The notes: a model not told the origin generated them from the letters alone. Numbered from the stretch's first letter, positions 7,497 through 45,828 are shown. The stretch is DNA of 64,000 nucleotides from a bacterium (GCA_965249485.1 OZ252239.1:3643587-3707586); one strand, 5' to 3'. Program-made: numbers and translations.

Positions 7497-7931
7497 TTAT
7501 TTAATATAGTCAAGTTTTCCCAGAACATAAAAGGTTTGATAATAGCCGGCACTGTTGTTTTCCAGAAATGTGTGAATCCATTGGAGACGTGTCTTCTGAT
7601 CATAGCCACCGCCGTCATGTGTCCATCTGATAAAAACAGACTGGTCTGTAATCGGCAGCTGTTTTACATTGGCCATCCAGCCATACCATTTAAAAGAATT
7701 TCGCAATAAATACTGCTCGACATTAGACGTATAGAACGAACTAACCGTAAGAAAACGCTCTCTCAGGAATTCTGATATTTTGTGGAGTGTCCAGCTTCCG
7801 GCAAAATCGCCGGTGACCGGAATGATTCTGTTCTTTTTATGGAGATATCTCAGAAACTTGTAATCATCGTTACTATTAAAGGGATTTTGGTGTATCCCGC
7901 CTTCTGATCTCATGCGGAGTACTTGACCCAA
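7497..7931 (-). CDS. Hypothetical protein; possibly the frameshifted C-terminal continuation of the upstream ORF
   Basis: 144 aa ORF that overlaps the preceding ORF by 56 nt in another frame. It has only a TTG start and no RBS. Confidence 0.25.
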   Translation of the reverse strand: MGQVLRMRSEGGIHQNPFNSNDDYKFLRYLHKKNRIIPVTGDFAGSWTLHKISEFLRERFLTVSSFYTSNVEQYLLRNSFKWYGWMANVKQLPITDQSVFIRWTHDGGGYDQKTRLQWIHTFLENNSAGYYQTFYVLGKLDYIK

Positions 7932-8619
7932 AGATCGGATACCATGACCTTTTTGAACCGTTGTAAGTTATATCGATATTGTATTGATAGAAGTTTTCGA
8001 GAACTTTTCTGAGAGCATTTTTATCCCTCTCTGTCAGAGTAAAACCATACGTATTAGATAATCGGCTTTCAATTTTAGACCGTGTTGTTGTAAGCATCTG
8101 TCGGTCGGATTGTGCCGTAGAAAAAAACTCTATGATCAACTCGATATTATTATCTTTATTAAGATCAGAGGATGAGTCAAGCGGCTTAGAAAAGAGCAGA
8201 GACAAGAATTCAGCACGGGTATCAGCCAGTTCGAAGAGCACCTTATAGACAAGGTGTTGCATAGTATTTTGATGCCTGATATCGACAATAAACGCTAATT
8301 GGGGTTTTATTGCAGATATATACACGAAGTTCTGATTGGGTCCGACACCGAGGTAAACACCTCCATTCACTAAATTCTTCTCGATTGACGGCAGCACATT
8401 GAGATAAGTCAATTCATTCGATATCCAATTATCACTCGGAAAATATCCGCCATATTCTGAAAATGTTGTCACAATTTTTGAAAATTCCTTGTCAGATATG
8501 TCAGGAAAGGTCTGAGCAGTTACAGGAACTGTATAAGATATGGTGATCAACCAGAATATGAAAATGAATCGCACAAACATAGATAAGGTATTGTTGGACG
8601 TATTCATTGTTTGAGTCAT
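7876..8619 (-). CDS. Hypothetical exported protein
   Basis: 247 aa with an N-terminal TM/signal segment. No recognisable family. Confidence 0.4.
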   Translation of the reverse strand: MTQTMNTSNNTLSMFVRFIFIFWLITISYTVPVTAQTFPDISDKEFSKIVTTFSEYGGYFPSDNWISNELTYLNVLPSIEKNLVNGGVYLGVGPNQNFVYISAIKPQLAFIVDIRHQNTMQHLVYKVLFELADTRAEFLSLLFSKPLDSSSDLNKDNNIELIIEFFSTAQSDRQMLTTTRSKIESRLSNTYGFTLTERDKNALRKVLENFYQYNIDITYNGSKRSWYPIFGSSTPHEIRRRDTPKSL

Positions 8620-8754: not shown

Positions 8755-9870
8755 TTATGATTCCAGATCTGTTCTTATTTTCGGGGTTTTGGGTGGTGCT
8801 TCACCCTTCAAGGAAGCAACAATACGATCGACATGAATGTGGCAGTTCTCAATAAAGAGCCGGTAGGATTTCTGTGTCCCAGCCGCGGCTGTTCCAGCTA
8901 CGTAGAGACCGGGCACCGAAGTTTCCATTGTTCTCCTGTTAAATTCAGGAACATCCCACGGATTTTTCAGTTTTGCACCCACCTTTCTGAACAAGTGCAT
9001 GTCAGCTTTATAACCGGTAAGCAGTAAAACAAAGTCAGCAGTGGTTGTTTTTGTTCTACCACTTTTGAGGCTCTTGAGTGTTACCGTTTCGTCACGTATT
9101 TCGACAGGTACGGTCTCTTTAAAGAGAGTTATTTTCTTTTGCCTGATGAGACTTTCCAACTCCGGTAGTAACCAATATTTGACATGTTTTGGATTGAATT
9201 CATCACCACGATAGCTTATGGAAACTGAAGCTCCACAGTGATAGCACCGTAGTGCTGCTTCAACTGCGGAGTTCTTGCCTCCCACGACAAGTACGAGCTG
9301 ATTAAAATATTTATGCGGATCGTCAAAAAAATGAGAGACATGTGGCAGATTTTCACCAGGAATGTTGAGCAGCTTCGGTTCGTGCATGTCTCCGATAACA
9401 AGCACCACCTTTTTTGCTCTATAACGATACTTTTTCTTTTTACGTGTTGTTATGAGGAGAAATCTATTATCACTGTTTTTTTCTATGGAATCAACCGATT
9501 CGTATGTCCGGATTTCCAGTCCGAATTGCTGCACTACCGAACGCAGATATGCAAGATACTCTTCCTTTGTACATTTGGACTGATCAACCCGGGGTATCGG
9601 TATTCCGGGAATGGCAATTCTGTCTGCAGAACTGAAAAATCGCATAAAACGTGGAAACCAACTGATAGTCTGTGCAATTTGCCCTTTGTCAAACTGAATA
9701 TAATCAATCTTTTCTTTCTTGAATGCACGTGCGAGTTCAATTCCAATTGGCCCTGCACCTACTACCGCAACATCAGTTGACGTCGGTCTAATTGTCACTT
9801 CTCCCCAATAAAACAGCAATAATAATTTTTCATCATTACCTTCAATAATGAAAAATGCATAAATTGTCAT
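8755..9870 (-). CDS. FAD/NAD(P)-binding pyridine-nucleotide-disulfide-type oxidoreductase (YpdA/thioredoxin-reductase-like)
   Basis: Rossmann motif VAVVGAGPIGIELA near the N-terminus and a second GG-containing dinucleotide motif (VVGGKNSAVEAA). The true start is probably downstream of the annotated Met. Confidence 0.6.
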   Translation of the reverse strand: MTIYAFFIIEGNDEKLLLLFYWGEVTIRPTSTDVAVVGAGPIGIELARAFKKEKIDYIQFDKGQIAQTISWFPRFMRFFSSADRIAIPGIPIPRVDQSKCTKEEYLAYLRSVVQQFGLEIRTYESVDSIEKNSDNRFLLITTRKKKKYRYRAKKVVLVIGDMHEPKLLNIPGENLPHVSHFFDDPHKYFNQLVLVVGGKNSAVEAALRCYHCGASVSISYRGDEFNPKHVKYWLLPELESLIRQKKITLFKETVPVEIRDETVTLKSLKSGRTKTTTADFVLLLTGYKADMHLFRKVGAKLKNPWDVPEFNRRTMETSVPGLYVAGTAAAGTQKSYRLFIENCHIHVDRIVASLKGEAPPKTPKIRTDLES

Positions 9871-9960
9871 TCGAATTCAAGGCAAAAAAAGACCGGTTAA
9901 AAAAGTAATCGTTTAACCGGCTGATTCAAAAGGATTTCAATACTATGAAGAAGAATTGAA

Positions 9961-11253
9961 TTATCCCGGAATAAGATTGAGAATCTCTTTTATCGGCATG
10001 CATAAATCGTTCGCTTCATAAGAACGTTCATGTTCCAATATCGATTCTGCTGTTTTAATCATAGCCGGATAGGCGCTGCGAAGAAGGTGGTTTGCATAGA
10101 TGACTATGTTCGCGCCAGCAGATGATAATTCCGACTCGGTAATAGAATTATACGTTGAAGGAACCGCTACTAACGGGACGCGATTTTCAAACTTCTTGTA
10201 TTCGTCGCAAAATTCGAGAACCTCTTGTGGAGACTTTTCCTTGCTGTGAATCATGATCCCATCCGCACCTGCTTCAATAAATGCGTGAGCCCTTTTAAGA
10301 GCATCCTGCAAGCCGGCTTTTAGAATAAGACTCTCAATACGAGCAATTATCATGAAATCGTTTGTTACCTGGGCACGTTTTCCTTCGGAAATTTTACTCG
10401 AAAAATTATCAATTGAATCTTGCGTTTGTTCAACTTCTGTACCGAACAGTGAATTTCTCTTCAAGCCAATTTTGTCTTCAATAATCACAGCAGAAACTCC
10501 CAATCGTTCCAACGTGCGTACCATGAGGATAAAATGTTCAACATATCCGCCACTGTCTCCGTCATATATGATCGGCTTTGTTGAAACTTCCAATATTTGG
10601 TTCACTACATTTAATCTGCTTGTAAAATCTCCGAACTCAATATCAGCTTTACCTTTTGCGGTTGAATCTGTCAAACTGCTGATCCACATACCATCGAATT
10701 CTTTAATTTTGTCATCTTTTGTGACTTTTGTATGTTCCACTATTAATCCGGTCAGCCCGTTATGTGCTTCTAATATTCTGGTAACCGGTTTTACTTCTAT
10801 CATTCTCCGAAGCTGTCTCATCCTTACTTCTGGTGTTGTACCAATCTCGCGTACAGCTTCCTGAAGTATTTTGGAAGACACACCCTTTGTATAGGATGGC
10901 TCTACCAGTTCTCCACCCCATTCCTTGAGCACTTCAATTACTCGTTCTCTGGTTTTACTCATAAAACCAGTTTTCCAGTCATCGCCATGCACAACATAAT
11001 CTGGCTTCATTTTCCTTAGGTTATCATCATAATCAAAAGTCTCCTGCGGTACAACGTGAGCAACACCTTTGATATTTTCGACAATTATTCTTCGCTGATC
11101 GTATGTCAAAAGAGGAAATCTGTAATGTGAGGCAATCGCTTTATCAGTTAATAAGCCAATCGTAACCTCACCTAACTTTCGAGCTTCCTGTATTATGTTT
11201 AAATGACCATGGTGTAACAAATCAGCACTAATTGCTACATAGACTTTTTTCAA
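9961..11253 (-). CDS. Bifunctional cytidylyltransferase–phosphoenolpyruvate mutase (Fom1/PntC-Ppm-like fusion), copy A, intact
   Basis: 430 aa. N-terminal ~130 aa carry the HxGH nucleotidyltransferase motif ([10 protein letters not shown]). The C-terminal ~290 aa are from the ICL/PEP-mutase family, with the PEP-mutase signature [12 protein letters not shown]. Confidence 0.8.
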
Positions 11254-11539
11254 TGTGAAACTCCAATAATATTAGAATGTCATTGAGACAAATTAAAGAA
11301 CGATTTAATAATACCACATTTTATTATTATTATAAATACGCAATACACTGAACAGAGTTTTCATCCACTGTACATTTCGCATTGTTGTGATTAAAATCAT
11401 GGAAAAAACAGCGGATTAATTCCTGTTAAATTATATAATGGTTTATAGAATATAAGACAAAAAACTATAAAACTGATTATATCACAGGAAAAATACTGTG
11501 ATATTTTTTAGTATTTTGTTTTTGTGTTTATGATTATCT

Positions 11540-11890
11540 TCATTTTATTTGTGCAGTTTTATCGCCCTCACTCAAAAGTATTTTATTCTCTTCTTGGAGA
11601 ACCTTACTAAAATATACACCAAAGATATTTAAAAATAATATTGGCCAGACATAAATATTTTGCTCAACTTTATAGATAGCTATTGTGATAAAAAATCCGA
11701 ACAGTGTAAATTCATAGAAAAGCATAGTATCAAAGACTTTTTTAAGCCAATAACCAATTGGTGTGCCTTTATCTCTAATCCTGGCAAGAGAGCCATCAAG
11801 ACAATCTAAAAAATGTTGTATTTCATTTATAACTCCAGCAATTATAAAACTTATATAGTTTGCCCGGAATATTAGATAAAATATCGTCAA
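11540..11890 (-). pseudogene. CDP-alcohol phosphatidyltransferase-family gene, N-terminally truncated paralog (copy A)
   Basis: 116 aa. Retains the DG(x2)AR(x8)G(x3)D signature (LDCLDGSLARIRDKGTPIGYWL). Lacks the ~70 N-terminal residues present in the 235-aa paralog at 16126–16833, and an upstream in-frame stop confirms the truncation. Confidence 0.5.
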
Positions 11891-12026
11891 AGCAAAAACT
11901 GTCTAAAAATTGTAATCTGATTGGGAGTTATCCGGGAATTTTTCATTAAAAGAGCAACTTTTCTTGCCGATCTTTCAAAAATATCCTTTCTTTCATCAGG
12001 AGAACCAAATATTACCGGAAATCGCA

Positions 12027-13478
12027 TTATTGTTTTTCTCCAATTAATTCAGCAAGTACTACTCTGTCATTATGGTCAAATCCTTTTAGGAGCAATAAAA
12101 TTAATGTAAATAATAAAAGTCCGAATATGATTGTTATATAATAAGAAAAAGACATCCCAAAAATCACAATCAGTATTCCAGAGGATGCCACAATCGGTTT
12201 AATCATATTTTTGAATGCCGTTATAATAAGTAATCTTATATCAGAAATGAATATCCCGGTAATGATAATTGAAATGTACGAAAATACTACTGCTAATGAT
12301 GCTCCAATGATTCCAAACGCTGGAATAAGTAAGATATTTAGTAAAATAAACAAACTCCCGCTTATTAATTCTAATACTAATGGGTACATTTGTTTATCGC
12401 TTGCTATTAAAGTTGAGTTTAAAAATACAGATACAAAAATAAATACAAGTGAAAACATCAATATCTGCGCAGGGATAACGGCCATAATATATTGCTCTTT
12501 AAAAAGGAACACAATTATATTTTCCATATATACGTAAAAATATATCATAATGGGAATTGCAAGTATAGTTAAATATTTTATGGAAAGACCAAAGACATTC
12601 ATAAATACATCACGATTTTCAATGTATTTTTTAGCAAGAACAGGTGCCAATGTAATATTAAGAATAGCAGGGATAACGGTGAATACTGCTGGGATTCTCC
12701 ATGCAACAGAAAAAAGTGCAACCTGATCCGAAGTCATATAAAATTCGATGATCAGAACAGCAACATTTAACTTGATTATATAAAAAACGGCACTTAACAA
12801 AATTGGAAATGATTTCTTGAGGAGATTAAGGAATTCCGTTATATTAATACTGAAGCGGGGCCGTGGAAATAACTTTAAATAGAAAAGAGCAATACATATA
12901 AAACCCGGTAGGTCACAAAGTCCCACAGCCAGAATTAAATAATAAAATGAGCTATTACTTGTAAAAATAATCCATATTGAAGCAAGAAATATCAATCTGC
13001 CAAGAATGTTGAATAAGACTATATACATTATCTTAAAATTAACAACATACATTATTTCCCATATTTTTCTAAATGATTTGATTTTTGCAGAAAATAAAAT
13101 AAAAGGTGTGGCGATTAAGATTAGTCTGGTAGTTTCGGAAGTGTAACCAAACTGAGAATGTAACAAAAGAAATATGCTATAAGAAATGATAATTAGTATG
13201 ATACTGAAAAGTCCAGCAAATGTGAGACAAATACCCATTAATTGTGAGGATAAAGAAGTGTTTCGTGCAATTTCTCGCTGAATAATACTCGTCATACCAA
13301 AATCAGCAAAAACAGCAAATAATGTAAGATAAGCGATAATGAAATTATACTGACCGAATTGATCTTGTGAAAGGAAACGACTCAACCAAATAAATATATA
13401 AAGCTCAATTATTCGTGTAATAATGCTTTCAGAGAGAAAAAGAAGGGAATTTTTTGCTGCAACTCTAACATGAGCCAT
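12027..13478 (-). CDS. Polysaccharide biosynthesis/export protein, MOP-superfamily Wzx-like flippase
   Basis: 483 aa with ~12–14 TM helices. N-terminal region is typical of the PST family. Confidence 0.7.
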   Translation of the reverse strand: MAHVRVAAKNSLLFLSESIITRIIELYIFIWLSRFLSQDQFGQYNFIIAYLTLFAVFADFGMTSIIQREIARNTSLSSQLMGICLTFAGLFSIILIIISYSIFLLLHSQFGYTSETTRLILIATPFILFSAKIKSFRKIWEIMYVVNFKIMYIVLFNILGRLIFLASIWIIFTSNSSFYYLILAVGLCDLPGFICIALFYLKLFPRPRFSINITEFLNLLKKSFPILLSAVFYIIKLNVAVLIIEFYMTSDQVALFSVAWRIPAVFTVIPAILNITLAPVLAKKYIENRDVFMNVFGLSIKYLTILAIPIMIYFYVYMENIIVFLFKEQYIMAVIPAQILMFSLVFIFVSVFLNSTLIASDKQMYPLVLELISGSLFILLNILLIPAFGIIGASLAVVFSYISIIITGIFISDIRLLIITAFKNMIKPIVASSGILIVIFGMSFSYYITIIFGLLLFTLILLLLKGFDHNDRVVLAELIGEKQ

Positions 13479-13598
13479 AATATAAATCTATAAATTTATT
13501 GATTAATATTGACATAATTGTGTTCAGCAATTTGAATTTAGTTAATAATTTGCTATTTCAAGAAATTAGTTTCAAATTATATGAAAAATAATTGTTAG

Positions 13599-14735
13599 TT
13601 ACATTATATCTAATAATAGTGTTTTTATTTTTTTCTTTGTTATTATTCTTGGATTATTCTTCAACCTTTGCGTATTAATGTTCTTAGCAATTTTTTCAAT
13701 GTCATAATTAGAACGTATTCCAAGTTCAGTCAGTTTTGTAGACAATCCGATATTACACATCATTTTTTTTATTTTAATCTTTATATCACTAACCCCGGTA
13801 ATATCCATTAAAGTACTCAGTTCTTTAATAACACTTTTTACATATTCTACGCCTCGAGCATCAATAACATCTTGGGATGACACATTACTATTGTAAATAA
13901 ATATTGGAGTTAAAGTAAGTGCCACTGCATGTCCATGCGGAATATTATAGTATGAGGTCATAGGATAGGAAATAGCATGTAGTGCAGTTGTTTTAGTAAT
14001 ATTGATTGCTTTTCCCGAAAGGTGAGATGCATTTAACATCACTTCAGCGGTATCCCTCGTAGGATTGTTTACCGCGCATTCAATTGTCCCTAAAATCTGT
14101 TTAATTGCTTGTTTAGAATAAATTTTTGATTCATCAGTTGAATGTATACTCCAATATGATTCAATAGCTTGGCAAAGAGCATCCATACCAGAAGCAGCCG
14201 CAACTTGTTTAGGCATATTAACACAAAACTGGGGATCTAATAGGGCAACATCAGGCTGAATACATTCATGCATAATTGAGTATTTTTTATACCCATCATA
14301 TATAACTGCAAAGTGTGTTGATTCACTACCAGAACCCGAAGTAGTTGGTATTGCTATAATAGGAACTTTTTTTTTTATAATCTTTTTATTAGATCGGATA
14401 AAATCTTGCACTCCTAAAGATTGTACAGCAAGCACACTAATCAACTTTGCCATATCTATCACACTACCACCACCGATAGCAACGATTATATCCTGATTAT
14501 CTTTTTTAAAAAGTGTTACTCCTCTTTGCACATCTTCAATTTTTGGATTAATTTCAAAATCAAAAAACTTATGAACGATGTAAGAATTTAATACTTTACT
14601 TACAACTTTTTCAGCACCGCTACTTTTAAATGAATTGTTTCCAGTAACAAGAAAAACATTTTTGCACTTAAAGGATTCAAGTATACTTTTCAAATGTATA
14701 ATACTATTATATCCTGAGATTTCTGTTTGATTCAT
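13599..14735 (-). CDS. Iron-containing (group III) alcohol dehydrogenase; candidate phosphonoacetaldehyde reductase (FomC/PhpC-like)
   Basis: 378 aa. Fe-ADH motifs GGGSVIDMAK and the His-rich metal site (HGHAVA). Located between PEP-mutase copies and the phosphonopyruvate decarboxylase. Confidence 0.7.
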   Translation of the reverse strand: MNQTEISGYNSIIHLKSILESFKCKNVFLVTGNNSFKSSGAEKVVSKVLNSYIVHKFFDFEINPKIEDVQRGVTLFKKDNQDIIVAIGGGSVIDMAKLISVLAVQSLGVQDFIRSNKKIIKKKVPIIAIPTTSGSGSESTHFAVIYDGYKKYSIMHECIQPDVALLDPQFCVNMPKQVAAASGMDALCQAIESYWSIHSTDESKIYSKQAIKQILGTIECAVNNPTRDTAEVMLNASHLSGKAINITKTTALHAISYPMTSYYNIPHGHAVALTLTPIFIYNSNVSSQDVIDARGVEYVKSVIKELSTLMDITGVSDIKIKIKKMMCNIGLSTKLTELGIRSNYDIEKIAKNINTQRLKNNPRIITKKKIKTLLLDIM

Positions 14736-14786
14736 CCGCGCTAACTCTTACATATATTATTAATAATTTAAGGAATTGTATATTAA

Positions 14787-15606
14787 TTAAGCATATAACT
14801 TGAGGAGATCATTAATTGAAATACACTTTTTTTCTGCTTCCAAAGATCGTCCATTAAGAAGAATTGTTTCAGCAGTTTTTTTCATGATTGGATATGCACT
14901 TCTAAGAAGTTGATTTGCATATATAACAATATTCACTCCTAATTCTTTTAATGCAGTTTCTGTTAGATTGTTATATTTTGTAGAAATTGCGACAAGGGGA
15001 ACCCGTTTTTCAATTTGAGAATATTCCTGATAAAATGAGAGGATTTGCTGAGGAGTTTTTTCATTACTGTGGATCATGATTCCATCTGCACCAGCCTCGA
15101 TATAAGCATGTGCTCTTTTCAAAGCACCGTTTAAATCAGATCCGTGAATTAGACTTTCAATTCGACCAATAATCATAAAATCATTTGTGATCTGAGCTTG
15201 TTTCCCTTGAGATATTTTATAATGAAAAACTTTCAATAGAATCTTGAGTTTTTTTAAAGCCAGATTTCATTAATGAATTCTTTTTTAAAACTATTTGGTC
15301 ATCAATTATGACTGCTGTAACACCCATTCGTTCTAAAGTTTTTACTATATGAACAAATTGTTCTGGATGGACACCCCTATCTCCTTCAAAAATTGTCGGT
15401 TTTGTAGACGCTTTTAAAATTTGATTGGTAGTTTCAATTCTTGAAGAAAAATCGACATGCTCAAAATCTACTTTACCTTTTGAAAGACAGACAGTTTGGT
15501 TGCTAATCCAAATTCCATCAAATTCCTTAATAATATTATCAACTGTTACTCTGGTGTTTTCAACGATTAATCCTGAAATGCCGTTATGAGCTTCTAATAT
15601 TCGCAC
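14787..15606 (-). pseudogene. PEP mutase domain remnant (copy B), disrupted by a frameshift; EDK motif changed to DDQ
   Basis: Two overlapping ORFs, 15217–15606 and 14787–15236, in different frames. Together they align end-to-end with the C-terminal PEP-mutase part of copy A. The catalytic-loop sequence reads IIDDQIVLKKNSL where copy A has [13 protein letters not shown]. Confidence 0.6.
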
Positions 15607-15633
15607 AAATTTATTGGTCTGGAGTATTTTCCT

Positions 15634-16077
15634 TTATTTTTTTACTTTAGGGTTTTGTGGGATACCTAACACTCTTATTTTTTCATTCAGCAGTGTCGAG
15701 GATATTCCAGGAGTATATGGTATCTCAACTAATTCCCCATTCCACTCTTTTAAAGTATGTATAACTCGTGCTCTAATTTCTTTCTGTACTCCAGTTTTCC
15801 AATCATCGCCATGGACAACATAGTCGGGTTTCATTTTTCTTATATTCGGAATATAATCAAGCGTTTTCTGGGGTAGAACGTTTATAACTCCTTTGATACT
15901 TTGAATAACTGTTTTTCTTTGTTCATATGACATATAAGGCAATCGTTTGTAACCTGCAATCGCTTCATCAGTCAACAATCCTATTGTTACTTCTCCCAAT
16001 TTTCGAGCATGATTGATAATATTTATATGTCCGGGATGAATGAGATCAGCACTCATTCCAACGTAAACTTTCTTCAT
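15634..16077 (-). CDS. Cytidylyltransferase domain protein (copy B), severed from its PEP-mutase domain by an in-frame TAA
   Basis: 147 aa, ~70% identical to the N-domain of copy A, with the HxGH motif IHPGHINII. The TAA at 15634–15636 is in frame with the downstream mutase remnant. The linker is homologous to the copy-A interdomain linker. Confidence 0.6.
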
Positions 16078-16125
16078 TCGAATTTTCTGTGATTATTGAA
16101 TAATGTGTTTAAATTATATTTATAA

Positions 16126-16833
16126 TTATGTATATCTTTGCTCTTTGAAGTGAAGTACTGTTAAACTTGCATACCTTAACCACTGGATTTGTCTGAAAAC
16201 GGCAATTACTATCATTGCTATTAGAAGAGGATTTATTTTAAGATATGAATAGAGTGGTTCGTAAAATATCATACAAAAATAGATAAACTGTGGGTACCAT
16301 ATAAAGATTTTAAAAATCAATTTGCTGAATTTGCTTCTTTTCTTATCCTGGATTACAATATCTTTTCTACTCCGGTTTTTTAAATTTATATATGCGTCTA
16401 AAAATATTTCTTTAAATAGAAATCCAAAAGTATTAAAAAATAACACTAACCATATTATCGGATTATTTTCGATTTTATAAATTGCTAAGGACAAAAAGAA
16501 TCCAAATAGGCTAAAATCACTAAACAACAATAAATCCACCTTCATTTCCAACCAATATCCAAATTTAGTTTCCATTTTATTTAGTCTTGCCAGTTGTCCA
16601 TCAACGCAATCTAAAAGATAGTGGAATTCACAAAGTATTCCGGCAATTATAAAATATTGATATTCTGCTTTATAAAGCAAAAAATACAGTACTATTGATA
16701 GTGGTTGTCTGAATAATGTTACATGATTAGGCTTTATCTTAGTATTTTTTAAATAATAAGCAATTTTTTTTCCGCATTTGTTAAAGACACTGACTCTGTC
16801 TGCAGGATTTCCAAAAATTGTTGGGAACTTCAT
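16126..16833 (-). CDS. CDP-alcohol phosphatidyltransferase-family membrane protein (full length, copy B)
   Basis: 235 aa. Signature LDCVDGQLARLNKMETKFGYWLE. Multiple TM helices. Confidence 0.65.
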   Translation of the reverse strand: MKFPTIFGNPADRVSVFNKCGKKIAYYLKNTKIKPNHVTLFRQPLSIVLYFLLYKAEYQYFIIAGILCEFHYLLDCVDGQLARLNKMETKFGYWLEMKVDLLLFSDFSLFGFFLSLAIYKIENNPIIWLVLFFNTFGFLFKEIFLDAYINLKNRSRKDIVIQDKKRSKFSKLIFKIFIWYPQFIYFCMIFYEPLYSYLKINPLLIAMIVIAVFRQIQWLRYASLTVLHFKEQRYT

Positions 16834-16953
16834 ATTTTCCTCAAAAATATCTATCGCATTAATTACTCAGACAATCTTGCAGAATACCAGAATCCTTGAT
16901 GACTCACAAAACTCGCAAATATTATTAAGATAAATCCCCAAAAAAAACTTAAT

Positions 16954-17514
16954 TTATATTAAAGAGTTTCTTAGTTGATCTTTTATTTTCTCTGGGGTAT
17001 GACTAACGCGTGCTATTCCCTTGATATTTCCGGATTCCACATTAATCTGCACACAGATCGGACCGTTATTACTTATGATATTTTGAAAATATCTTTCTAA
17101 CTCACTTAATTCTGAAATCGTATTTACTGATACATATCCGGAGCTTTTTGCTATATCCGCAAGGTTAATATCTGAAGTAATGGTTTTCTGCCCGCCGGTC
17201 GAGCTGTACACCTGATTGTCAAAAATTATATGGTAATAGTTTTTAAGTTGCAAAAATCCGGCTAGTGGGAAATTCCCAAGATTCATGAGTGCACTACCGT
17301 CCCCATCAAATACAAAAACCGGAATATCCGGTTTATTAAGAGCAATGCCTATTCCTATAGATGAAGCATACCCCATAGATCCGATCATATAAAAATTGTT
17401 TGCCCTGTCATTGAGCGTAAACACTTCTCGGGAAATCATTCCTGTTGTACATATGATCGGTGCATTGTCAGGTAACACTTTAAAAATAACTTGTAACGCT
17501 TCTATTTTATTCAT
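16954..17514 (-). CDS. Phosphonopyruvate (or sulfopyruvate) decarboxylase, beta subunit (TPP-binding C-terminal domain)
   Basis: 186 aa. TPP-binding GDG…N motif (VFVFDGDGSALMNLGNF). Immediately downstream of the alpha subunit. Confidence 0.7.
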   Translation of the reverse strand: MNKIEALQVIFKVLPDNAPIICTTGMISREVFTLNDRANNFYMIGSMGYASSIGIGIALNKPDIPVFVFDGDGSALMNLGNFPLAGFLQLKNYYHIIFDNQVYSSTGGQKTITSDINLADIAKSSGYVSVNTISELSELERYFQNIISNNGPICVQINVESGNIKGIARVSHTPEKIKDQLRNSLI

Positions 17515-17537
17515 GTCATTTTTAAATCAAATAATAT

Positions 17538-18026
17538 TCAGTCAATTATATTATCTTTTAAGATAGCAGCCACGGGAACCTGTTTTTCGTCCATAACTGC
17601 TATAAGCTCCGAAAAAACAGATTCAATATTATCCTTTTCGAATATTTTATAGGGTATCTTCATTAATTTCAAAAAATTTAACATCTCAGCGCCCATAATG
17701 ATGTGTTCAGGTGCGTCCTTCCCTTGATAGCCTCTCCAGGAAATGATCATGAATACTGGAATTTTGTATATTAAATTGAGAGAAGTAAGTCCATTAACCA
17801 CATTGCCAAGTCCAGAGTTTTGGATTAGTATTCCAGACCTTCTACCCGAAAAATAACCGCCCGTAGCGATTCCCAACGCCCCATCTTCTCTTGTTGCAGG
17901 GATATATGTAAAATCGGAATCGTTCTCAATTTCAATTAAAATTTTCTTGAATATCGAGCACGGAACACCGGAAAGAAATGTTAATCCGTATTTTTTTAAG
18001 TGTGAAGAAAATTCATTTGAATTCAT
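17538..18026 (-). CDS. Phosphonopyruvate (or sulfopyruvate) decarboxylase, alpha subunit (TPP-enzyme N-terminal domain)
   Basis: 162 aa of ComD/Ppd-alpha-like sequence (ATREDGALGIATGGYFSG…ILIQNSGLGN). Clusters with the PEP mutase. Confidence 0.7.
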   Translation of the reverse strand: MNSNEFSSHLKKYGLTFLSGVPCSIFKKILIEIENDSDFTYIPATREDGALGIATGGYFSGRRSGILIQNSGLGNVVNGLTSLNLIYKIPVFMIISWRGYQGKDAPEHIIMGAEMLNFLKLMKIPYKIFEKDNIESVFSELIAVMDEKQVPVAAILKDNIID

Positions 18027-18213
18027 CGCTTTATATAATAATTAATATTGATCCTATAATATAGCGTAGGTAATGAATGGTGTTAAGTGTAAAAAATAAT
18101 TGAATCAATATCAAGGATATATCACGTTCTGACCAGACATTCTGAAACAAAATCTATTTTTTTCAACATAATATTCGGGAAAGACAAGGAGAGGCAAGTA
18201 CAAGTGCTATATT

Positions 18214-19161
18214 CTAGTGTGAAGAGAATTCTTTTATGCACTGTTTGTTAAGATCAATGAAGTCGATTTCTGATAAATTCCACTTGTCATTGTAAAGACT
18301 TTCCGTAATATGATCTGGCCTGCTTGCACCATATATTGCAACATCTATATTGGAATTCCTCAATACCCATGCAACAGACAATTGCACAATCGTTAAATTA
18401 CGTTTTTGTGCAAAAATTTTTATTTTGTCTGTAATTTTAAGGTATTGTCTGAATTTTTCACCTTTAAATTCAGGTTGGTTTTGACGGCTATCGCCATTTT
18501 CAAACTTTGTTCTTGGTGTAAATTTTCCAGATAGTAACCCACGAAATAATGGGCTATATGCAAGAACTCCAATGTTTTTTTCAGCACAGAGAGGTAGTAC
18601 CTCTTCTTCAATTTCTCTTTGAAACAGATTGTATCGCACTTGAACAGTATCGAGACATCCAAGGGATATGTACTGTTTTATGTGGGATACGTCTACATTT
18701 GAAGCTCCAACATAACGTATTTTACCTGACTGTAAAAGATGCTCGAGCGCATTAACTGTATCAGAAATAGGGGTTGAATTATCCGGCCAGTGAGTTTGAT
18801 ATATGTCGATATAATCTGTATTCAATCGTTTGAGACTTTCCTCTACACTTTTCACAATATTAGTATAACTTAGATCGAATTGAGCTTTGCCTTCCTGTGT
18901 TCTTTTAACTCCTACTTTTGTAGCAATTATTACGTTTTTTCTGTTCATACTTAATGCTTCTGCTAATATGCTTTCTGAACGCCAAAATCCGTACACGTTT
19001 GCAGTATCAAAACAGTTTATTCCTATATCTAAAGCCTTATGAACTGTTGCTATAGAATCAGCTTTACTCGGAGCACCTGCGTATTCTACACCAAAATTTC
19101 CGCATCCTAATGCAATTCTTGAAACTTTTATATTAGTTGAACCTAACTGGACAAAAATCAT
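18214..19161 (-). CDS. Aldo/keto reductase family oxidoreductase
   Basis: 315 aa. AKR (α/β)8 fold signatures (GCGNFG…; IDIYQTHWPD). Confidence 0.75.
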   Translation of the reverse strand: MIFVQLGSTNIKVSRIALGCGNFGVEYAGAPSKADSIATVHKALDIGINCFDTANVYGFWRSESILAEALSMNRKNVIIATKVGVKRTQEGKAQFDLSYTNIVKSVEESLKRLNTDYIDIYQTHWPDNSTPISDTVNALEHLLQSGKIRYVGASNVDVSHIKQYISLGCLDTVQVRYNLFQREIEEEVLPLCAEKNIGVLAYSPLFRGLLSGKFTPRTKFENGDSRQNQPEFKGEKFRQYLKITDKIKIFAQKRNLTIVQLSVAWVLRNSNIDVAIYGASRPDHITESLYNDKWNLSEIDFIDLNKQCIKEFSSH

Positions 19162-19274
19162 AATATAAATTGTTTAGTAACAAATAAATCTATTATAAAA
19201 TTAATTTTATAATAGATTTATTGAATGAGTTAACTTCTTGTTGCAAAGTAGTATGGAGGGATATTATTGAGTAA

Positions 19275-19967
19275 TTATTTCATTCTACACCGTGTAGCAA
19301 TCATCTCAAAGAATATTTTTGAGATAATACCTATGCCCCCAAATTTTGATTCTCCTAATTCCCTCTGAAGATAATTTATTCCTATTTGTTTTATTACAAA
19401 TCCTTTTCTGTGCGCTTTGATGAGGCTTTCAGCATCATGAAATCCCCACTTTGACTCAAGTTTAATATCTTCAAATACTTTTGATGAATATAACTTATAA
19501 GAAAAATTTATATCCCGAAGTTTTAAATTAAATAATGATCTAACGAGCCAATTGAATACACCAGAATAAACTTTACGTTTCATACCCTCATTCCGATTTA
19601 AGCGAAATGCTGATACGATATCACATGAATTGATAATATCAAACGCTTTGAAAATATCTTGAAAATCGAATGGTTCATCAGCATCAAACAAAAAGAAGTA
19701 CTCCATCGATGCAGTGGTAATGCCAAGGGATACCGCACTTCCCATTCCTTCTCTTTGCTCTTGATGCACCACTATGACATTGTGAATTTCCCTTTCAAGA
19801 TTGTCTACAATAACTGGTGTATTGTCGGTACTGCCACTTTCAATTATAACAATCTCAAAATTTTCAATACTGTCCTGCAGAATTCTTGCTATTTTTCTGA
19901 CAACTTTATCAACATACTGTTCTTCATTATAGACTGGGAGAATAATAGACACGCTTGATTTTATCAT
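19275..19967 (-). CDS. GT2 glycosyltransferase, polyprenyl-phosphate sugar synthase-like (DPM1/ArnC-like, soluble form)
   Basis: 230 aa. N-terminal ILPVYNEE, and DxD-type motifs (FDAD). Confidence 0.65.
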   Translation of the reverse strand: MIKSSVSIILPVYNEEQYVDKVVRKIARILQDSIENFEIVIIESGSTDNTPVIVDNLEREIHNVIVVHQEQREGMGSAVSLGITTASMEYFFLFDADEPFDFQDIFKAFDIINSCDIVSAFRLNRNEGMKRKVYSGVFNWLVRSLFNLKLRDINFSYKLYSSKVFEDIKLESKWGFHDAESLIKAHRKGFVIKQIGINYLQRELGESKFGGIGIISKIFFEMIATRCRMK

Positions 19968-20038
19968 ATAAGTTCCGAAAAAATTTCCAAGAAGTTTTTC
20001 TGTATTTCAGCATGTGAATACCATTAAAGAATAAAGTA

Positions 20039-20785
20039 TTATTTACTAGAAATAATGTCAGACACACTCTCTTTATTTTTCCGGAGGATTTTATTCATTA
20101 ATGAATCGATATCTTCAACTGCTTGTTGATAATCATCCTGACGTCCTATATCCATCCAATAATCTTTACTTTCATAGGCCATAATTTTTTGTCCGCCATC
20201 TTTCATTCTTAAGAGTAAGTCTGGAAAATCCAATCGTTCACCTGCTTTGATAAAATCCAACGCTCTTGGTTCAAAATATCTTATCCCCATTCCGACTTTA
20301 TAATCAAGGATTGGCTTTTCTTTGTGCCCTTGCACTATATTATCTGAATCAACATCAATAACTCCATAATTAATATTAACTGAACGATTATGAATTGCTA
20401 ATGTCAAATCAGATTTATTACCTCTATGAAATTTTAACATTTTAACGTAATCAAGCGTTGTTAAAATATCGCCATTCATTACAAGAAATGTTTTGTTGAG
20501 ACCTCGAATTTCCTTTATCGGCCCTATAGTACCAAGAGGAATTTCTTCATCAATATATGTGATCTTCAAACCATTTATTACGCGCTTATTTCCAAAATAG
20601 GCTTTAATTATTTCAGACAAGTATCCAACCGCAAGTATTGCCTCTGTAAATCCATAAAGTGAAAGCTGCTGTAATACTATTTCTAAGATTGGAATATCTC
20701 CTAAAGGCATCAGAGGTTTTGGAAGAATTGTAGTGTATGGATAGAGACGAGTCCCACGCCCACCGGCAAGAATGACTGCTTTCAT
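20039..20785 (-). CDS. Sugar-1-phosphate nucleotidyltransferase (RfbF / glucose-1-P cytidylyltransferase-like)
   Basis: 248 aa. N-terminal MKAVILAGGRGTRLYPYTTILPKPLMP. Confidence 0.7.
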   Translation of the reverse strand: MKAVILAGGRGTRLYPYTTILPKPLMPLGDIPILEIVLQQLSLYGFTEAILAVGYLSEIIKAYFGNKRVINGLKITYIDEEIPLGTIGPIKEIRGLNKTFLVMNGDILTTLDYVKMLKFHRGNKSDLTLAIHNRSVNINYGVIDVDSDNIVQGHKEKPILDYKVGMGIRYFEPRALDFIKAGERLDFPDLLLRMKDGGQKIMAYESKDYWMDIGRQDDYQQAVEDIDSLMNKILRKNKESVSDIISSK

Positions 20786-20911
20786 ATTGCGTTAGTATCC
20801 TTTTATGGCTCACTATCCGAAACTACATGTTATAGAATTAATCGAATAGTATCATAACATTCTTTAAATTAAATCTAATAACATTTATAAAATATTCTAA
20901 TATTTACACAT

Positions 20912-21757
20912 TTACAAAATCTCTAGATGAGATTTGAGTACATCCGATGTCCTCTCCCATTTGAAATTATCCATCAGAGTTAGAAACATCTCCCGAACAT
21001 TAGGTAAATAAAAGACAAATGCAGGATTCTTAATACAGAGTTTCCTTTTGGCAATCTGAGCCTTTTGTGTAGGTGGAAATATTTGCCAATTATGTATGAA
21101 CATGTTTACAAACTGCTGAGTATCCCGAGAGCGCTCAATAAAAAATGATATAAACTTATAACCCAGTGAGTACCACAAACTGCTTCCAAATGGAATCCCA
21201 TACGTTAATAATCTTAGGTTCATATTTGAAGGGTATTCCAACCTCCCATTAAAATTTCTATAGGTAAAGAGAGAGACCGGACATTCTAATACACCATCTT
21301 TAAAAAATAAATTATTAGTTTCCCCATAAACTGATAAGCTTGAGGTAATTCCGAATTGTTTTAAATATTTATAGCCTTCTTCACAGAATACAATTGATGG
21401 TGCTTGAAACGTTGTTGGACGATATTGCTTAATAAATTCGGATGATTTATGTAACTCTGATAAAAGTGTTTCATGATTGTAAATATGTTTATGAGAGTTT
21501 GTGTGATACCCAATTTCATGTCCTTCTTTAATCAAACTTTCGATTAAGTCGGGATACCATTCTGCTATTTCAGAAACAACATACCAGGTTAATTTGATAG
21601 AACGTTTCGATAATTCGTTAAGGAGATATTCTGATTCTCTAACTATATCTTCATTATCAATTTTTTTTCTCTCGACAGAATCCAGATTTTGAAATTCCGG
21701 AATAAGGTGAACCCAGGATTCAAGATCGACTGACATTATATTACGATCAGTAGACAT
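20912..21757 (-). CDS. Polysaccharide deacetylase-family protein (NodB-like/DUF3473-like)
   Basis: 281 aa with His-containing motifs (GHEIGYHTNSHKH). Confidence 0.45.
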   Translation of the reverse strand: MSTDRNIMSVDLESWVHLIPEFQNLDSVERKKIDNEDIVRESEYLLNELSKRSIKLTWYVVSEIAEWYPDLIESLIKEGHEIGYHTNSHKHIYNHETLLSELHKSSEFIKQYRPTTFQAPSIVFCEEGYKYLKQFGITSSLSVYGETNNLFFKDGVLECPVSLFTYRNFNGRLEYPSNMNLRLLTYGIPFGSSLWYSLGYKFISFFIERSRDTQQFVNMFIHNWQIFPPTQKAQIAKRKLCIKNPAFVFYLPNVREMFLTLMDNFKWERTSDVLKSHLEIL

Positions 21758-21937
21758 GTCTTAAGTGTGTTAATTTGACAATCTGGATTAGCCAGATAGG
21801 CTTTATTATATCGACAAAAAGTCCGGTTTTCTCTACATGATTTATTTTTAATCCGCCTTCATTTGCATACTTTTAAATTTTATGGTTTGTAAATAAATTA
21901 ATTGAATTGCCTTGCAATAAGTGATAGAATTTAAAAT

Positions 21938-22273
21938 TCAAGCCCCAAAAAGACAACCTGATACTACTAATACTATAATACCATTTTCAGATAGATGGTT
22001 TATTATATTTTTAAATACATCTGAAAGAATTGTGCAAAATTCCAAAGATCCAGCATATAAGATTTTATTAAATTTTTTATTTAAACTAAAATTTTGCAAA
22101 TCAGCAACTTCTGCATTGATACCGCGAGATTGTGTATACTTCACCATCTCATGTGACAAGTCAATTCCATAAACTTCTGCACCATATTCTTTGAGTATTA
22201 ACGAATTATAGCCTGATCCACAACCGCGGTTTAATATGTTATCCCCTTCAATCGGATCAAGTAAGCGCAGCAA
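21938..22273 (-). pseudogene. Class I SAM-dependent methyltransferase fragment
   Basis: Only 111 aa. Motif I (NRGCGSGYNS) lies ~13 aa from the start, which is too short for a complete MTase. Flanked by ~180 and ~390 bp of AT-rich noncoding DNA. Confidence 0.35.
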
Positions 22274-22667
22274 AATCTTTTGTTCTGCAGCTTTTAATCT
22301 TCCAAAAAATCATTTAGCCAATTTTTGTTGATAATTATTTGCTAGTTTATCATAATACTCCATTGAGCTCATATTATTTTCTGTTGGTCACAGATCCAAG
22401 TTGTATTTTACATGAACAATAAATATACTTAAAATTAACCGGAATTGGTGAATTATTTTAATTGAATATTTATTTTTTATCCAAAGTTTCCAAAGTTTGA
22501 TAAATTTAAGAAATCTAATAGATGAAAATCTATCTTTTATATAATTGATGCAATTTAAATATGTAAATAAGCAAATATTTATACTAATTAAACCTTTTTA
22601 GCGTTATTTTATTAATCTAAAAATTGATCATTATAATTTCAAAATAAGGGATTAAGAAAAATTATTT

Positions 22668-23405
22668 ATGGAGAGTAAAGTGGCAAATAAATCACTAGTT
22701 GTAAAAATTTTATACTTTGCAAGAAATCTGAGATCTCGAAAATTGTTTAGTGTTTTAGAAACATATTGTAAAGGTAATGTCCTTGATGTAGGTGGGGGAG
22801 CATTCTTCTTAACCGCACAAAAAAAGAAATATCAAATCAAATCTTGGACAACATTAGAATACTATAAGGAAGAAAAAATTGAGACTGAAGACGAAAGATT
22901 CAGGTTCGTTCAAAGTGATGGATGCAAATTACCATTAAAGAGTGATCAATTTGAAACAGTATTGAATATTCAAGTTCTTGAGCATGTATTTGATGCAGCA
23001 GAAATGGTATACGAAATCGCTCGTGTGCTCAAACCCAATTGCTATGGAATATTTCTAATTCCTCAGACATCAACCCTGCATTGGGCTCCAAATCATTACT
23101 ATAATTTTACCCGATATTGGATACAAGAGGTTATGCAAAGAGCCAATTTAGAAATAATCGAACTTAAACCTCTTGGAGGAATCTGGACCTCAATGGCCTC
23201 TCATTTAGTCTATTTTTTTCTTCAAAGTATACGATTCCATGGAATGTCTTCGAAAGAAAATGAAAGAAAATTATTCTTTTATCTTTTATATCCAATTATG
23301 GTATTATATGCTATAATAAACATCCCAATTTGTATGATCCTGGGGTTAGGCGATTTAACAGAGGAGCCTAACAATCATCTGGTTATAGTCAGAAAAACAG
23401 TGTAG
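22668..23405 (+). CDS. Class I SAM-dependent methyltransferase with C-terminal membrane anchor
   Basis: 245 aa. Motif I VLDVGGGAFF. Two C-terminal hydrophobic helices. Confidence 0.6.
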   Translation: MESKVANKSLVVKILYFARNLRSRKLFSVLETYCKGNVLDVGGGAFFLTAQKKKYQIKSWTTLEYYKEEKIETEDERFRFVQSDGCKLPLKSDQFETVLNIQVLEHVFDAAEMVYEIARVLKPNCYGIFLIPQTSTLHWAPNHYYNFTRYWIQEVMQRANLEIIELKPLGGIWTSMASHLVYFFLQSIRFHGMSSKENERKLFFYLLYPIMVLYAIINIPICMILGLGDLTEEPNNHLVIVRKTV

Positions 23406-23416
23406 ATAAATATAAC

Positions 23417-25063: not shown

Positions 25064-25110
25064 AAAATATCCTGTTATATTTAATAACTACAAAAATAAA
25101 ATGTTTTTTA

Positions 25111-27525: not shown

Positions 27526-27849
27526 AGTTTCACATTGTCAATGAAAGACATCATGCACTTCATTACTTCGACATTTGGATCTGATTTGATCCAATCGAAA
27601 ATCAAAGCAAAAAAGGATCGTTAATCTTTTATACATCTCATTTTAACAATAATCCTCGCGGTATCACATTCTTGGGAAAATTGTTGATTGATCTGGAAAT
27701 TGTTATTGCGGTAATTGGACATCTTGATAAAAAATCAAGTGATTATCAGGGGCGCACCGTGTTTTCTGTTGCTGCTGATACATCAGCATTCGCAAATCAT
27801 ACGGTTGTTTTTGAATTATAAATTTTAGATATCTCAGGGGAATCTCCAT

Positions 27850-28623: not shown

Positions 28624-28728
28624 TTCATCTACAATTTACTTAACAGTTTCAATAATAATGACTCTAACAAATCACCTGCATAATCTTTTCAAACTGCCTG
28701 TGTAACCGTTCATCCCTCAGCTTACCAC

Positions 28729-29580: not shown

Positions 29581-29582
29581 TT

Positions 29583-30523: not shown

Positions 30524-30742
30524 ATATTTACAATAATGAGTTTTTATTTAAACAGGAATTTTCCCTTTCAAATCTCTGCAAGATATTGTTAGGGAGTTTT
30601 TGGAATTATGACAGCAAATTAACATTTAATCCTGTCATTTGCAAAAGGAATTTGGATAAAAAAATTCATGTAAGTGCCAAAGAAATGATCCACTTGCTAA
30701 TTGTCATACATTATTTGCTTTCAGTAATAATCAGACAAATTG

Positions 30743-36711: not shown

Positions 36712-36889
36712 TACAATATTAAGTAAGATTAAGATTATATATAAAAATAATGATTTTTTAGCCAGATCGTACATATAGGAAAATAACATCCCTGATATTA
36801 CGTGCCTTTTTATATAGCACAGGACATTTGCGACCGTAAAAGCAATTAACTATCTATTTAGAATTATGATAATGAGGAAAAATGAAATC

Positions 36890-45604: not shown

Positions 45605-45828
45605 ATATATAAGATTGCAAGTGACTATTTTTTATCATATCAACCGGAATCCCAATTATGAACCAGGTATCTTTCGACAAATATGAAGTGAATGGACCTA
45701 AAATCAGATTACAAAGCGTGCACTTTTAGTCAATTATTTATTAATAGCCATCTGACAATAATAATAATCAAATCCTATAACAACATCCAATTCTAAAAAG
45801 ATTGTACCGCTCACTGAGGAGGAGTCAC

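Follow-up and report, generated by a model that had tools for sequence, protein, structure and literature searches.

Phosphonates attached to the cell surface are widespread, and esters of 2-hydroxyethylphosphonate (HEP) and methylphosphonate on polysaccharides account for a large share of the dissolved organic phosphorus in the sea. In no system has the enzyme been demonstrated that transfers a cytidine monophosphate (CMP)-activated phosphonate to its acceptor, and the steps of the Pnt pathways have been termed "enigmatic" (Rice et al. 2019). A 64,000-nucleotide stretch of bacterial DNA (GCA_965249485.1, OZ252239.1:3643587-3707586; the whole stretch is here called the window, and positions are counted from its first letter) contains, at 9961-18026 and entirely on the minus strand, a set of genes predicted to produce CMP-activated HEP (CMP-HEP). 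They encode a fusion of a cytidylyltransferase with a phosphoenolpyruvate (PEP) mutase (Ppm), a two-subunit phosphonopyruvate decarboxylase (Ppd), an iron-dependent alcohol dehydrogenase (Fe-ADH), a CDP-alcohol phosphotransferase (CDP-OH-PT) and a Wzx-type flippase. With moderate confidence, the locus can be regarded as a cell-envelope phosphonate-tailoring module inside a horizontally acquired glycoconjugate island. It brings together a fusion, a Ppd, an ADH and a 235-aa membrane transferase, one of each, as a compact set of candidates, the last of them for the phosphonyl-transfer step that is still undefined.

The first four chemical steps predicted for the locus correspond to those performed by Fom1, Fom2 and FomC in the fosfomycin pathway of Streptomyces, with which it shares the cytidylyltransferase-Ppm architecture and the reduction of phosphonoacetaldehyde by an Fe-ADH. 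Unlike the Streptomyces cluster, the window is without Fom3 and Fom4, its Ppd is composed of two subunits and its genes lie in a flippase/glycosyltransferase context; CMP-HEP, a transient intermediate for methylation in fosfomycin biosynthesis, is predicted to serve here as the donor for transfer. The Pnt pathways of Treponema denticola, Atopobium and Olsenella (PMC6697681) likewise combine Ppm and Ppd with cytidylyl activation and transfer to a cell-surface acceptor. They utilize a LicC-like PF12804 protein (PntC), 2-aminoethylphosphonate (AEP) and LicD-like transferases (PMC6697681), whereas the window encodes a PF01467 cytidylyltransferase, probably employs HEP, carries a CDP-OH-PT and gave no LicD match in Pfam scans of the island.

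Also comparable in gene content to the window are the predicted phosphonolipid clusters designated "Burkholderiales_CDP-OH" or Group 1 (PMC8942020; Yu et al. 2013, cited there), which likewise possess a Ppm-cytidylyltransferase fusion, a second cytidylyltransferase, Ppd and CDP-OH transferases. The seven-gene core of "Burkholderiales_CDP-OH" includes an AEP transaminase and an alpha-ketoglutarate/Fe(II) oxygenase, 1-hydroxy-AEP being predicted and the product uncharacterised (PMC8942020); the window differs in its Fe-ADH and Wzx/glycan context, and no Aminotran_5 or oxygenase domain was found in Pfam scans of it, which covered open reading frames (ORFs) of at least 100 aa up to position 36800 and of at least 120 aa in 36800-64000, short ORFs nested in longer ones excepted. 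The polysaccharide B locus of Bacteroides fragilis (AepX/AepY/AepZ) also contains a PF01467-Ppm fusion and Ppd within a low-GC locus for capsular or surface polysaccharide with Wzx (PMC8942020, GCF 743) but, unlike the window, makes AEP by way of the AepZ transaminase. HEP esterified to glycan, the type of product predicted here, occurs in the exopolysaccharides of Stackebrandtia nassauensis and Glycomyces and in marine HEP polysaccharides (cited in PMC8942020 and PMC13576164), although these belong to other organisms and gene clusters and their transferase is likewise undefined. A preliminary description of the locus had called phosphonate decoration based on a CDP-OH-PT, in place of a LicD-type transferase, poorly characterised. 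The novelty so claimed was overstated, since PF01467-Ppm fusions represent 23.6% of non-redundant RefSeq Ppm (PMC6697681) and clusters containing Ppm together with CDP-OH transferases have been catalogued (PMC8942020). The locus is best described as a further member of the known nucleotide-activated phosphonate tailoring loci, distinguished by its particular combination of HEP and a CDP-OH-PT. The general picture of phosphonate biosynthesis is unchanged by it; what it adds is one more clearly bounded example, together with a minor point of evolutionary interest, namely that a duplicated cassette has decayed reciprocally.

Proposed pathway

In the proposed pathway, the mutase domain of the fusion (9961-11253) would convert PEP to phosphonopyruvate, which the two-subunit Ppd (16954-18026) would decarboxylate to phosphonoacetaldehyde, thereby pulling an unfavourable equilibrium forward; both assignments draw on curated model scores and solved homologues. 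Synteny and a marker residue suggest that phosphonoacetaldehyde is reduced to HEP by the PhpC-like ADH (13599-14735). A Fom1-type cytidylyltransferase, at 63-66% identity to Fom1, would then form CMP-HEP from HEP and CTP, the source being the N-terminal domain of the fusion, a free-standing copy at 15634-16077, or both. The transferase encoded at 16126-16833 is proposed to join an acceptor hydroxyl to the phosphonate phosphorus at the cytoplasmic face of the membrane, releasing CMP. The recurrent linkage of the genes, and the lack of any other CMP-dependent transferase in the island, point to a product in which a lipid-linked glycan or a lipid carries the phosphonyl ester, and the linkage of Wzx suggests that the flippase may export the lipid-linked form.

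A lipid-linked glycan is favoured as the acceptor because the island encodes glycan functions (a sugar-1-phosphate nucleotidyltransferase, two family 2 glycosyltransferases (GT2), a PMT_2 glycosyltransferase of the GT-C type, large membrane proteins, a deacetylase and a flippase-like protein) and Wzx lies beside the transferase; a diacylglycerol-type phosphonolipid is possible. The CMP-HEP pathway anticipated in the preliminary description receives computational support at each step that could be tested, namely the mutase, the homology to Fom1, Ppd, the lack of an aminotransferase in the scans, the synteny and the recurrent linkage of the CDP-OH-PT to phosphonate genes. The genes it had named (the fusion, Ppd, a group III Fe-ADH, CDP-OH-PTs and a Wzx-like flippase) are all present and in the same orientation, with Pfam E-values far beyond chance, but its inventory overlooked a second, broken copy of the fusion (three ORFs, 14787-16077), and only one of the CDP-alcohol phosphatidyltransferase-family enzymes to which it referred is intact (16126-16833), the other (approximately 11320-12027) being a multiply frameshifted pseudogene.

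The cytidylyltransferase-PEP mutase fusion

The intact fusion (copy B, 9961-11253; 430 aa, TTG start) contains a PF01467 (CTP_transf_like) domain at residues 11-114 (E 1e-12) and a PF13714 (PEP_mutase) domain at residues 155-406 (E 4.5e-51). An HHGH motif of the HxGH type is legible in the translation, as is the catalytic EDKxxxxxNS motif that separates Ppm from other PF13714 proteins (Rice et al. 2019), in agreement with the architecture and EDK signature first reported for it. The mutase domain attains 398.5 bits on the NCBI equivalog model TIGR02320 (PEP_mutase; cut-off 319.55) and falls far below the cut-offs of the sister models, with 79.9 bits for prpB, 43.6 for CPEP mutase and 129.3 for Pphn_pyruv_hyd. 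These scores single out PEP mutase, among the enzymes of the isocitrate lyase family, as the identity of the C-terminal domain, and a relationship to methylisocitrate lyase, which would have undermined the pathway, can be set aside. PEP mutase is coupled here to a consumer of phosphonopyruvate, the two-subunit Ppd being encoded 5.7 kb upstream of the fusion on the same strand.

The N-terminal domain aligns with the solved cytidylyltransferase domain of Fom1 (5x3d) with an E-value of 1.3e-54 and 84/134 identical residues (63%). It may accordingly be supposed to make CMP-HEP, with the qualification that the same family occurs in AEP clusters (PMC8942020) and that the substrate is not legible from sequence. 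The fusion family is very common, comprising thousands of proteins of approximately 70% identity across bacteria and archaea, some of which are annotated [quoted passage not shown].

Phosphonopyruvate decarboxylase

Ppd is encoded by adjacent genes for a beta subunit of 186 aa (16954-17514), which contains the thiamine pyrophosphate (TPP) domain PF02775 (TPP_enzyme_C), and an alpha subunit of 162 aa (17538-18026) containing PF02776 (TPP_enzyme_N). The best PDB match of the beta subunit is 9iz3_B, a "putative phosphonopyruvate decarboxylase beta subunit" (E 6.6e-38), and that of the alpha subunit is 9iz3_A, a "putative phosphonopyruvate decarboxylase" subunit (E 3.5e-35). On the curated models the beta subunit scores 196.8 bits with TIGR03297 versus 157.6 with sulfopy_beta (cut-off 221.5), and the alpha subunit 124.7 bits with TIGR03297 versus 133.8 with sulfopyru_alph (cut-off 147.95); as a rough sum, the two halves give 124.7 + 196.8 = 321.5 bits against the whole-protein TIGR03297 cut-off of 312.5. 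Because the alpha and beta chains of 9iz3 are the closest relatives and the scores lie below the sulfopyruvate decarboxylase cut-offs, the split is judged natural and a ComDE-type enzyme is disfavoured, so that the two-subunit TPP decarboxylase can be identified as Ppd. A frameshift artefact was considered as the origin of the split and rejected, since both halves align with the solved two-subunit Ppd over their full length and the gene for the beta subunit starts with an ATG of its own.

Alcohol dehydrogenase

The gene at 13599-14735 encodes a 378-aa group III iron/zinc alcohol dehydrogenase (PF00465 and PF25137, ADH_Fe_C) predicted to be a phosphonoacetaldehyde reductase of the PhpC/FomC type. 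Its metal ligands are D185, Q189, H253 and H267, and Tyr257 is found at the His+4 position. The best solved relative of the window enzyme, 6jko/6jkp, is a sulfoacetaldehyde reductase (PMC13576164), whose substrate is isosteric with phosphonoacetaldehyde but is a sulfonate, and the second metal ligand is Gln as in that enzyme, not His as in PhpC of P. fungorum. In the latter, K157 and R349 form a Lys/Arg clamp around the phosphonate. The Tyr located four residues after the first metal-binding His is reported to be strictly conserved in PhpC, whereas sulfoacetaldehyde reductases have Phe (PMC13576164); in keeping with this, 6jko/6jkp has Phe, and Tyr is present at His+4 in the Ppd-adjacent ADHs of four comparison loci (L003, L047, L048 and L049; the labels L001-L073 denote loci from other genomes or metagenomes) as well as in the window.

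CDP-alcohol phosphotransferase and flippase

The intact CDP-OH-PT (transferase A, 16126-16833; 235 aa), the candidate CMP-phosphonate phosphonyl transferase, scores 43.3 bits on PF01066 against a gathering cut-off of 22 and lies below every NCBIfam equivalog cut-off. Its AlphaFold model (pLDDT 89.6) finds AF2299 as the nearest solved fold (Foldseek probability 1.00, TM 0.64-0.66), with DIPPS and PIP synthases also among the closest, and the protein can be considered, on the strength of its sequence and model, a bona fide CDP-alcohol phosphotransferase with the six-helix membrane fold. It has in common with AF2299, DIPPS and PIP synthase (4o6m, 4mnd and 6wm5) this fold and the DxxDGxxAR...G...D signature, but is only 14-23% identical to them, has no cytoplasmic domain, carries Glu for the third Asp and is found in a different genomic context. 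The signature reads D75xxD78G79xxA82R83x8G92xxxE96xxxD100, the canonical form being D1xxD2GxxARx8GxxxD3xxxD4; Glu at the third acidic position is invariant in the six closest members of the subfamily and is the consensus residue across 26. P0122, P0123 and the KSB1 protein, its nearest homologues of full length, are likewise 235-236 aa long. The subfamily is rare: a word-indexed search of 5.8 billion proteins returned the transferase itself and one relative, and an exhaustive search of 1.8 billion representatives yielded 56 representative clusters at E <= 1e-10; at E <= 1e-3 the subfamily comprises 1074 representatives.

Pfam scans of the island detected no LicD, Glyphos_transf (TagF-type) or sulfatase-type transferase, and the CDP-OH-PT is regarded as the only recognisable consumer of a CMP-activated donor because no other such transferase is present there. 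A PF00483 (NTP_transferase) gene at 20039-20785 was entertained as a LicC-type PntC and rejected: it matches sugar-1-phosphate guanylyl- and uridylyltransferases, and LicC/PntC is not among its PDB matches.

The Wzx-type flippase of the MOP family (12027-13478; 483 aa, PF01943 (Polysacc_synt) and PF13440) is 42% identical to the flippase encoded directly upstream of the homologous CDP-OH-PT in the KSB1 locus L002. Wzx adjoins the transferase both in the window and in KSB1.

Gene neighbourhoods in other genomes

Loci were sought with a 6-sequence alignment of the CDP-OH-PT, an alignment of 26 sequences being too diverse. The closest transferase homologue (51% identical) is located on metagenome contig L001, where the next gene downstream encodes a fusion sharing 81% identity with copy B. 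In L003 (Pirellulales) and the metagenome contigs L051, L053 and L061, a fusion-type Ppm is followed by Ppd and Fe-ADH and then, after a gap of approximately 1.4 kb in L003 and 3 kb in the other three, by a CDP-OH-PT of the window subfamily. Cyanobacterial loci (L008, L010-L012, L066 and L073) and a Syntrophorhabdus locus (L013) pair a CDP-OH-PT of the subfamily with Ppm and/or Ppd, so that in all a subfamily member lies within 6-10 kb of Ppm/Ppd in L003, L008, L010-L013, L051, L053, L061, L066 and L073. The association of a CDP-OH-PT with phosphonate genes that was noticed in the window thus recurs in unrelated lineages (L001, L003, L047, cyanobacteria and metagenomes), and these comparative data show that the transferase subfamily travels with HEP modules in several of them.

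The order fusion, Ppd, Fe-ADH is itself kept in Ignavibacteriae, WOR-3, Pirellulales and metagenomes, and Fe-ADH homologues directly follow Ppd in L003, L048, L049, L051, L053 and L061. In glycan loci the same trio is accompanied by varied downstream transferases, including a Glyphos_transf protein in Ignavibacteriae (L048), a sulfatase-family protein in WOR-3 (L049) and three CDP-OH_P_transf genes in L047. The latter locus (GCA_053533695.1, 7679-20686) contains a fusion, Ppd, Wzx and three CDP-OH_P_transf paralogues in which the motif ends in D...H instead of D...D; it also holds three B12-radical SAM genes, Aminotran_5, a truncated Fe-ADH, ATP sulfurylase/APS kinase and pyruvate kinase.

Duplication and reciprocal decay of the transferase-fusion cassette

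The cassette formed by the transferase and the fusion occurs twice in the window, as diverged paralogues (59% and 45% identity). Fusion copy A, whose conceptual translation is 59% identical to copy B, is interrupted by an in-frame TAA exactly at the domain linker (15631) and by a frameshift between the two halves of its mutase (15236/15217). It is consequently represented by a free-standing Fom1-type cytidylyltransferase of 147 aa (15634-16077; PF01467, E 3e-16) and a decayed PEP mutase domain (14787-15606) that consists of two ORF fragments, an N-terminal half at 15217-15606 and a C-terminal half at 14787-15236. An alternative genetic code in the donor of the island was considered for the in-frame TAA, and for an in-frame TGA found in a methyltransferase gene of the island (see below), but was rejected, as there is a single case per codon and nearby frameshifts and active-site substitutions indicate decay.

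Both fusion copies were compared with 117 homologues and changes in near-invariant columns were counted. In the mutase of copy A, 21/99 family-invariant columns are changed, including E259D and K261Q (EDK to DDQ) and D231E; the catalytic site reads IIDDQIVLKKNSL, and the EDKxxxxxNS motif does not occur in the pseudogene. The mean identity of this domain to the family (0.56) is less than that of any pair of family members (minimum 0.655). Copy B, by comparison, has 2/99 mutase columns changed and 2/135 family-invariant columns overall. By its changes at the active site and in invariant columns, together with an identity below that of the family, the copy A mutase is a genuine pseudogene, for which assembly error alone does not account. 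The cytidylyltransferase of this copy, on the other hand, has 2/36 invariant columns changed, keeps the HPGH motif, is 66% identical to the cytidylyltransferase domain of Fom1 and is as close to the family as that of copy B (identity 0.687 and 0.682, respectively); the difference in decay between the two domains of copy A is supported by a Fisher test (p = 0.04). It is therefore likely that the 147-aa product persists as a separate cytidylyltransferase.

The second transferase (copy B, approximately 11320-12027), directly upstream of fusion copy B, has suffered the converse fate. Its homology to P0122, P0121 and P0123 runs through frames 1, 3, 2 and 1, indicating at least three frameshifts, and a 116-aa CDP-OH_P_transf fragment (11540-11890) is recovered as an ORF match; Lys replaces the invariant Glu of the subfamily (GYWLKKVFD). 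Active-site substitutions thus support both pseudogenes, mutase A and transferase B, independently of the frameshifts. Since copy A combines a dead mutase with a retained transferase and cytidylyltransferase, and copy B a retained fusion with a dead transferase, the sequences are read as reciprocal decay of the two cassettes, which has left one working mutase, one working transferase and one spare cytidylyltransferase.

A broader proposal, advanced only tentatively and with rather low confidence, is that the small CDP-OH-PTs with the Glu variant that are linked to Ppm clusters are dedicated phosphonyl transferases that esterify CMP-HEP or another CMP-phosphonate to a polyprenyl-linked sugar, and not to diacylglycerol, before flipping by Wzx, and that in the window two cassettes were pared by reciprocal loss, a Fom1-type cytidylyltransferase being salvaged from the dead fusion. 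If true, the polyprenyl-linked route would constitute a phosphonoglycan path distinct from that utilizing LicD.

Alternative explanations

Several considerations weigh against a working phosphonate-tailoring module. All of the pathway steps rest on computation. At least four genes of the island are broken, so that either the pathway or the glycan around it could have lost its activity, or the assembly may carry indel errors. The Fe-ADH passes no NCBIfam equivalog cut-off (174.3 bits on TIGR03405, the Phn_Fe-ADH (PsrA) model, versus 423.7), and an aminotransferase could be encoded elsewhere in the genome. Glu96 replaces the canonical third Asp in the signature of transferase A, a conservative change. 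Many members of the CDP-OH-PT subfamily, including its closest genomic relative, in KSB1 (L002), are found without a nearby Ppm, and the subfamily is consequently not phosphonate-specific; furthermore, two Campylobacterota loci (L006 and L007) and L058 pair the CDP-OH-PT with a lone cytidylyltransferase.

The last of these observations are accommodated by an alternative in which the CDP-OH-PT is unrelated to phosphonate and utilizes an ordinary CDP-alcohol (CDP-glycerol, CDP-inositol or CDP-ethanolamine), possibly supplied by cytidylyltransferase A, while one of the unannotated membrane proteins would be the transferase, so far unrecognised, that consumes CMP-HEP. The KSB1 locus (L002, 5930-12507 of a single amplified genome) consists of a split transketolase, an unknown gene, Wzx, a CDP-OH-PT 43% identical to that of the window and a B12-radical SAM gene. 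No Ppm gene lies closer than 10 kb, which hints that the subfamily also handles non-phosphonate donors, and the nearest solved folds (AF2299, DIPPS and PIPS) are those of inositol-phosphate enzymes. However, the transferase directly adjoins the fusion in L001 and in both window cassettes, Ppm/Ppd is repeatedly found linked to it, in Pirellulales, cyanobacteria, Syntrophorhabdus and metagenomes, when only approximately 5% of genomes carry ppm (PMC8942020), and cytidylyltransferase A is 66% identical to the HEP-specific domain of Fom1. An ordinary CDP-alcohol as donor is unlikely on this evidence, although it is the alternative to be taken most seriously.

A second alternative to the tailoring module is a decaying, non-functional remnant, in which both the phosphonate module and the glycan island are on their way to being lost and phosphonate conjugates are not formed. 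Besides the dead mutase A and dead transferase B, a frameshift splits an NAD epimerase/dehydratase gene (29583-30523, the break at 29960-30000), and a methyltransferase gene (approximately 21938-22300; ORF 21938-22273) has an in-frame TGA close to where it starts (22270-22300) and is cut short at its end. Elsewhere in the window, a frameshift (7876-7931) also splits a DUF7790 gene (7497-8619); all three genes are on the minus strand. The breaks in these three genes could be either real decay or long-read indel errors: the record name of a sister genome ("ctg362347_9x_l") suggests a low-coverage long-read assembly, and isolated frameshifts may for this reason be errors. Every step nevertheless keeps one intact copy, with few invariant columns changed in either fusion B or cytidylyltransferase A, and transferase A keeps the length and the motif of its homologues, which makes a non-functional remnant quite unlikely.

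If the module is functional, as preferred here, its head group is next to be considered. HEP is favoured over AEP because no aminotransferase was found in the window and the ADH carries the marker Tyr of PhpC, which agrees with the preference for HEP expressed in the preliminary description from the lack of an aminotransferase. The negative applies to aminotransferase domains in all scanned ORFs of the 64 kb. PhpC-type HEP neighbourhoods represent 8.5% of ppm neighbourhoods, AEP is predicted in 56%, and PF01467-Ppm fusions are found in AEP clusters too, e.g., that of Bacteroides fragilis (PMC8942020); L047, moreover, joins the fusion to Aminotran_5 and CDP-OH-PTs. These figures would suit a pathway to CMP-AEP in which the transaminase is encoded elsewhere and the Fe-ADH has another role, but the operon itself includes an ADH bearing the PhpC marker, and such an ADH follows Ppd in many loci, and we regard AEP as improbable, slightly more so than a defunct locus.

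A sulfonate pathway of the coenzyme-M type, in which ComDE and sulfoacetaldehyde reductase would lead to isethionate, could appeal to the slightly higher score of the Ppd alpha subunit on the sulfopyruvate alpha model and to the sulfoacetaldehyde reductase that is the best solved relative of the ADH (PMC13576164). It is very improbable given that both sulfopyruvate models stay under their cut-offs, the summed Ppd score exceeds its own, the closest PDB structures are those of Ppd subunits, the operon encodes a genuine PEP mutase, the ADH has Tyr and not Phe at the discriminating site, and no comABC-like genes were detected in the Pfam scans. A diffusible, fosfomycin-like small-molecule phosphonate in place of surface decoration is hardly credible either, for while the Fom1/Fom2/FomC triad does start fosfomycin biosynthesis (PMC6697681, citing Cho 2017), the Pfam scans found neither a B12-radical SAM methyltransferase (Fom3) nor an HppE-type epoxidase (Fom4) in the island, the only radical SAM gene (3099-4187) lies outside it and is without a B12 domain, and the context is one of a flippase, glycosyltransferases and GT-C enzymes.

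The glycoconjugate island and neighbouring genes

The phosphonate genes occupy the low-coordinate end of a low-GC island that extends over approximately 9961-33377. Island genes upstream of the fusion have a GC content of 28-37% and fusion copy B of 39.9%, compared with 42-47% in the flanks. Immediately upstream of Ppd is a minus-strand gene for an aldo-keto reductase (18214-19161; PF00248, 243 bits), for which the best NCBIfam model is YdjG-like (229 bits, below the cut-off of 550); a role in sugar modification, or as a further reductase of phosphonoacetaldehyde, is conceivable. According to the Pfam scans, the remainder of the island (19275-33377, minus strand) encodes two GT2 enzymes, one of them at 19275-19967, the sugar-1-phosphate nucleotidyltransferase, a polysaccharide deacetylase, methyltransferases, the PMT_2 GT-C enzyme, an 804-aa membrane protein, the broken epimerase, a 549-aa protein without assigned function and a flippase-like LPG_synthase_TM protein. 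The 804-aa protein (25111-27525, minus strand) gives only a weak PTPS_related match and adjoins the PMT_2 GT-C enzyme, and the ORF for the 549-aa protein (30743-32392, minus strand), which has no Pfam match, overlaps the end of the LPG_synthase_TM gene. The sole plus-strand gene of the island encodes a 245-aa class I methyltransferase (22668-23405) and is located in the stretch of lowest GC.

The Pfam scans of the window revealed neither C-P lyase nor phosphonatase genes, and Rfam detected no RNA family in it. A promoter and terminator scan of 9500-23000 gave counts not above those of shuffled sequence, and says nothing on operon structure. Just outside the island, an FGE-sulfatase-type protein and an alkaline phosphatase are encoded on the plus strand at 36866-37966 and 39085-40305, respectively. 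Further along the same strand, 45802-51196 holds three paralogous genes in tandem for M14 zinc carboxypeptidases (621, 566 and 572 aa); with the amidase and M20 peptidase genes that precede them, they look like a block for peptide degradation.

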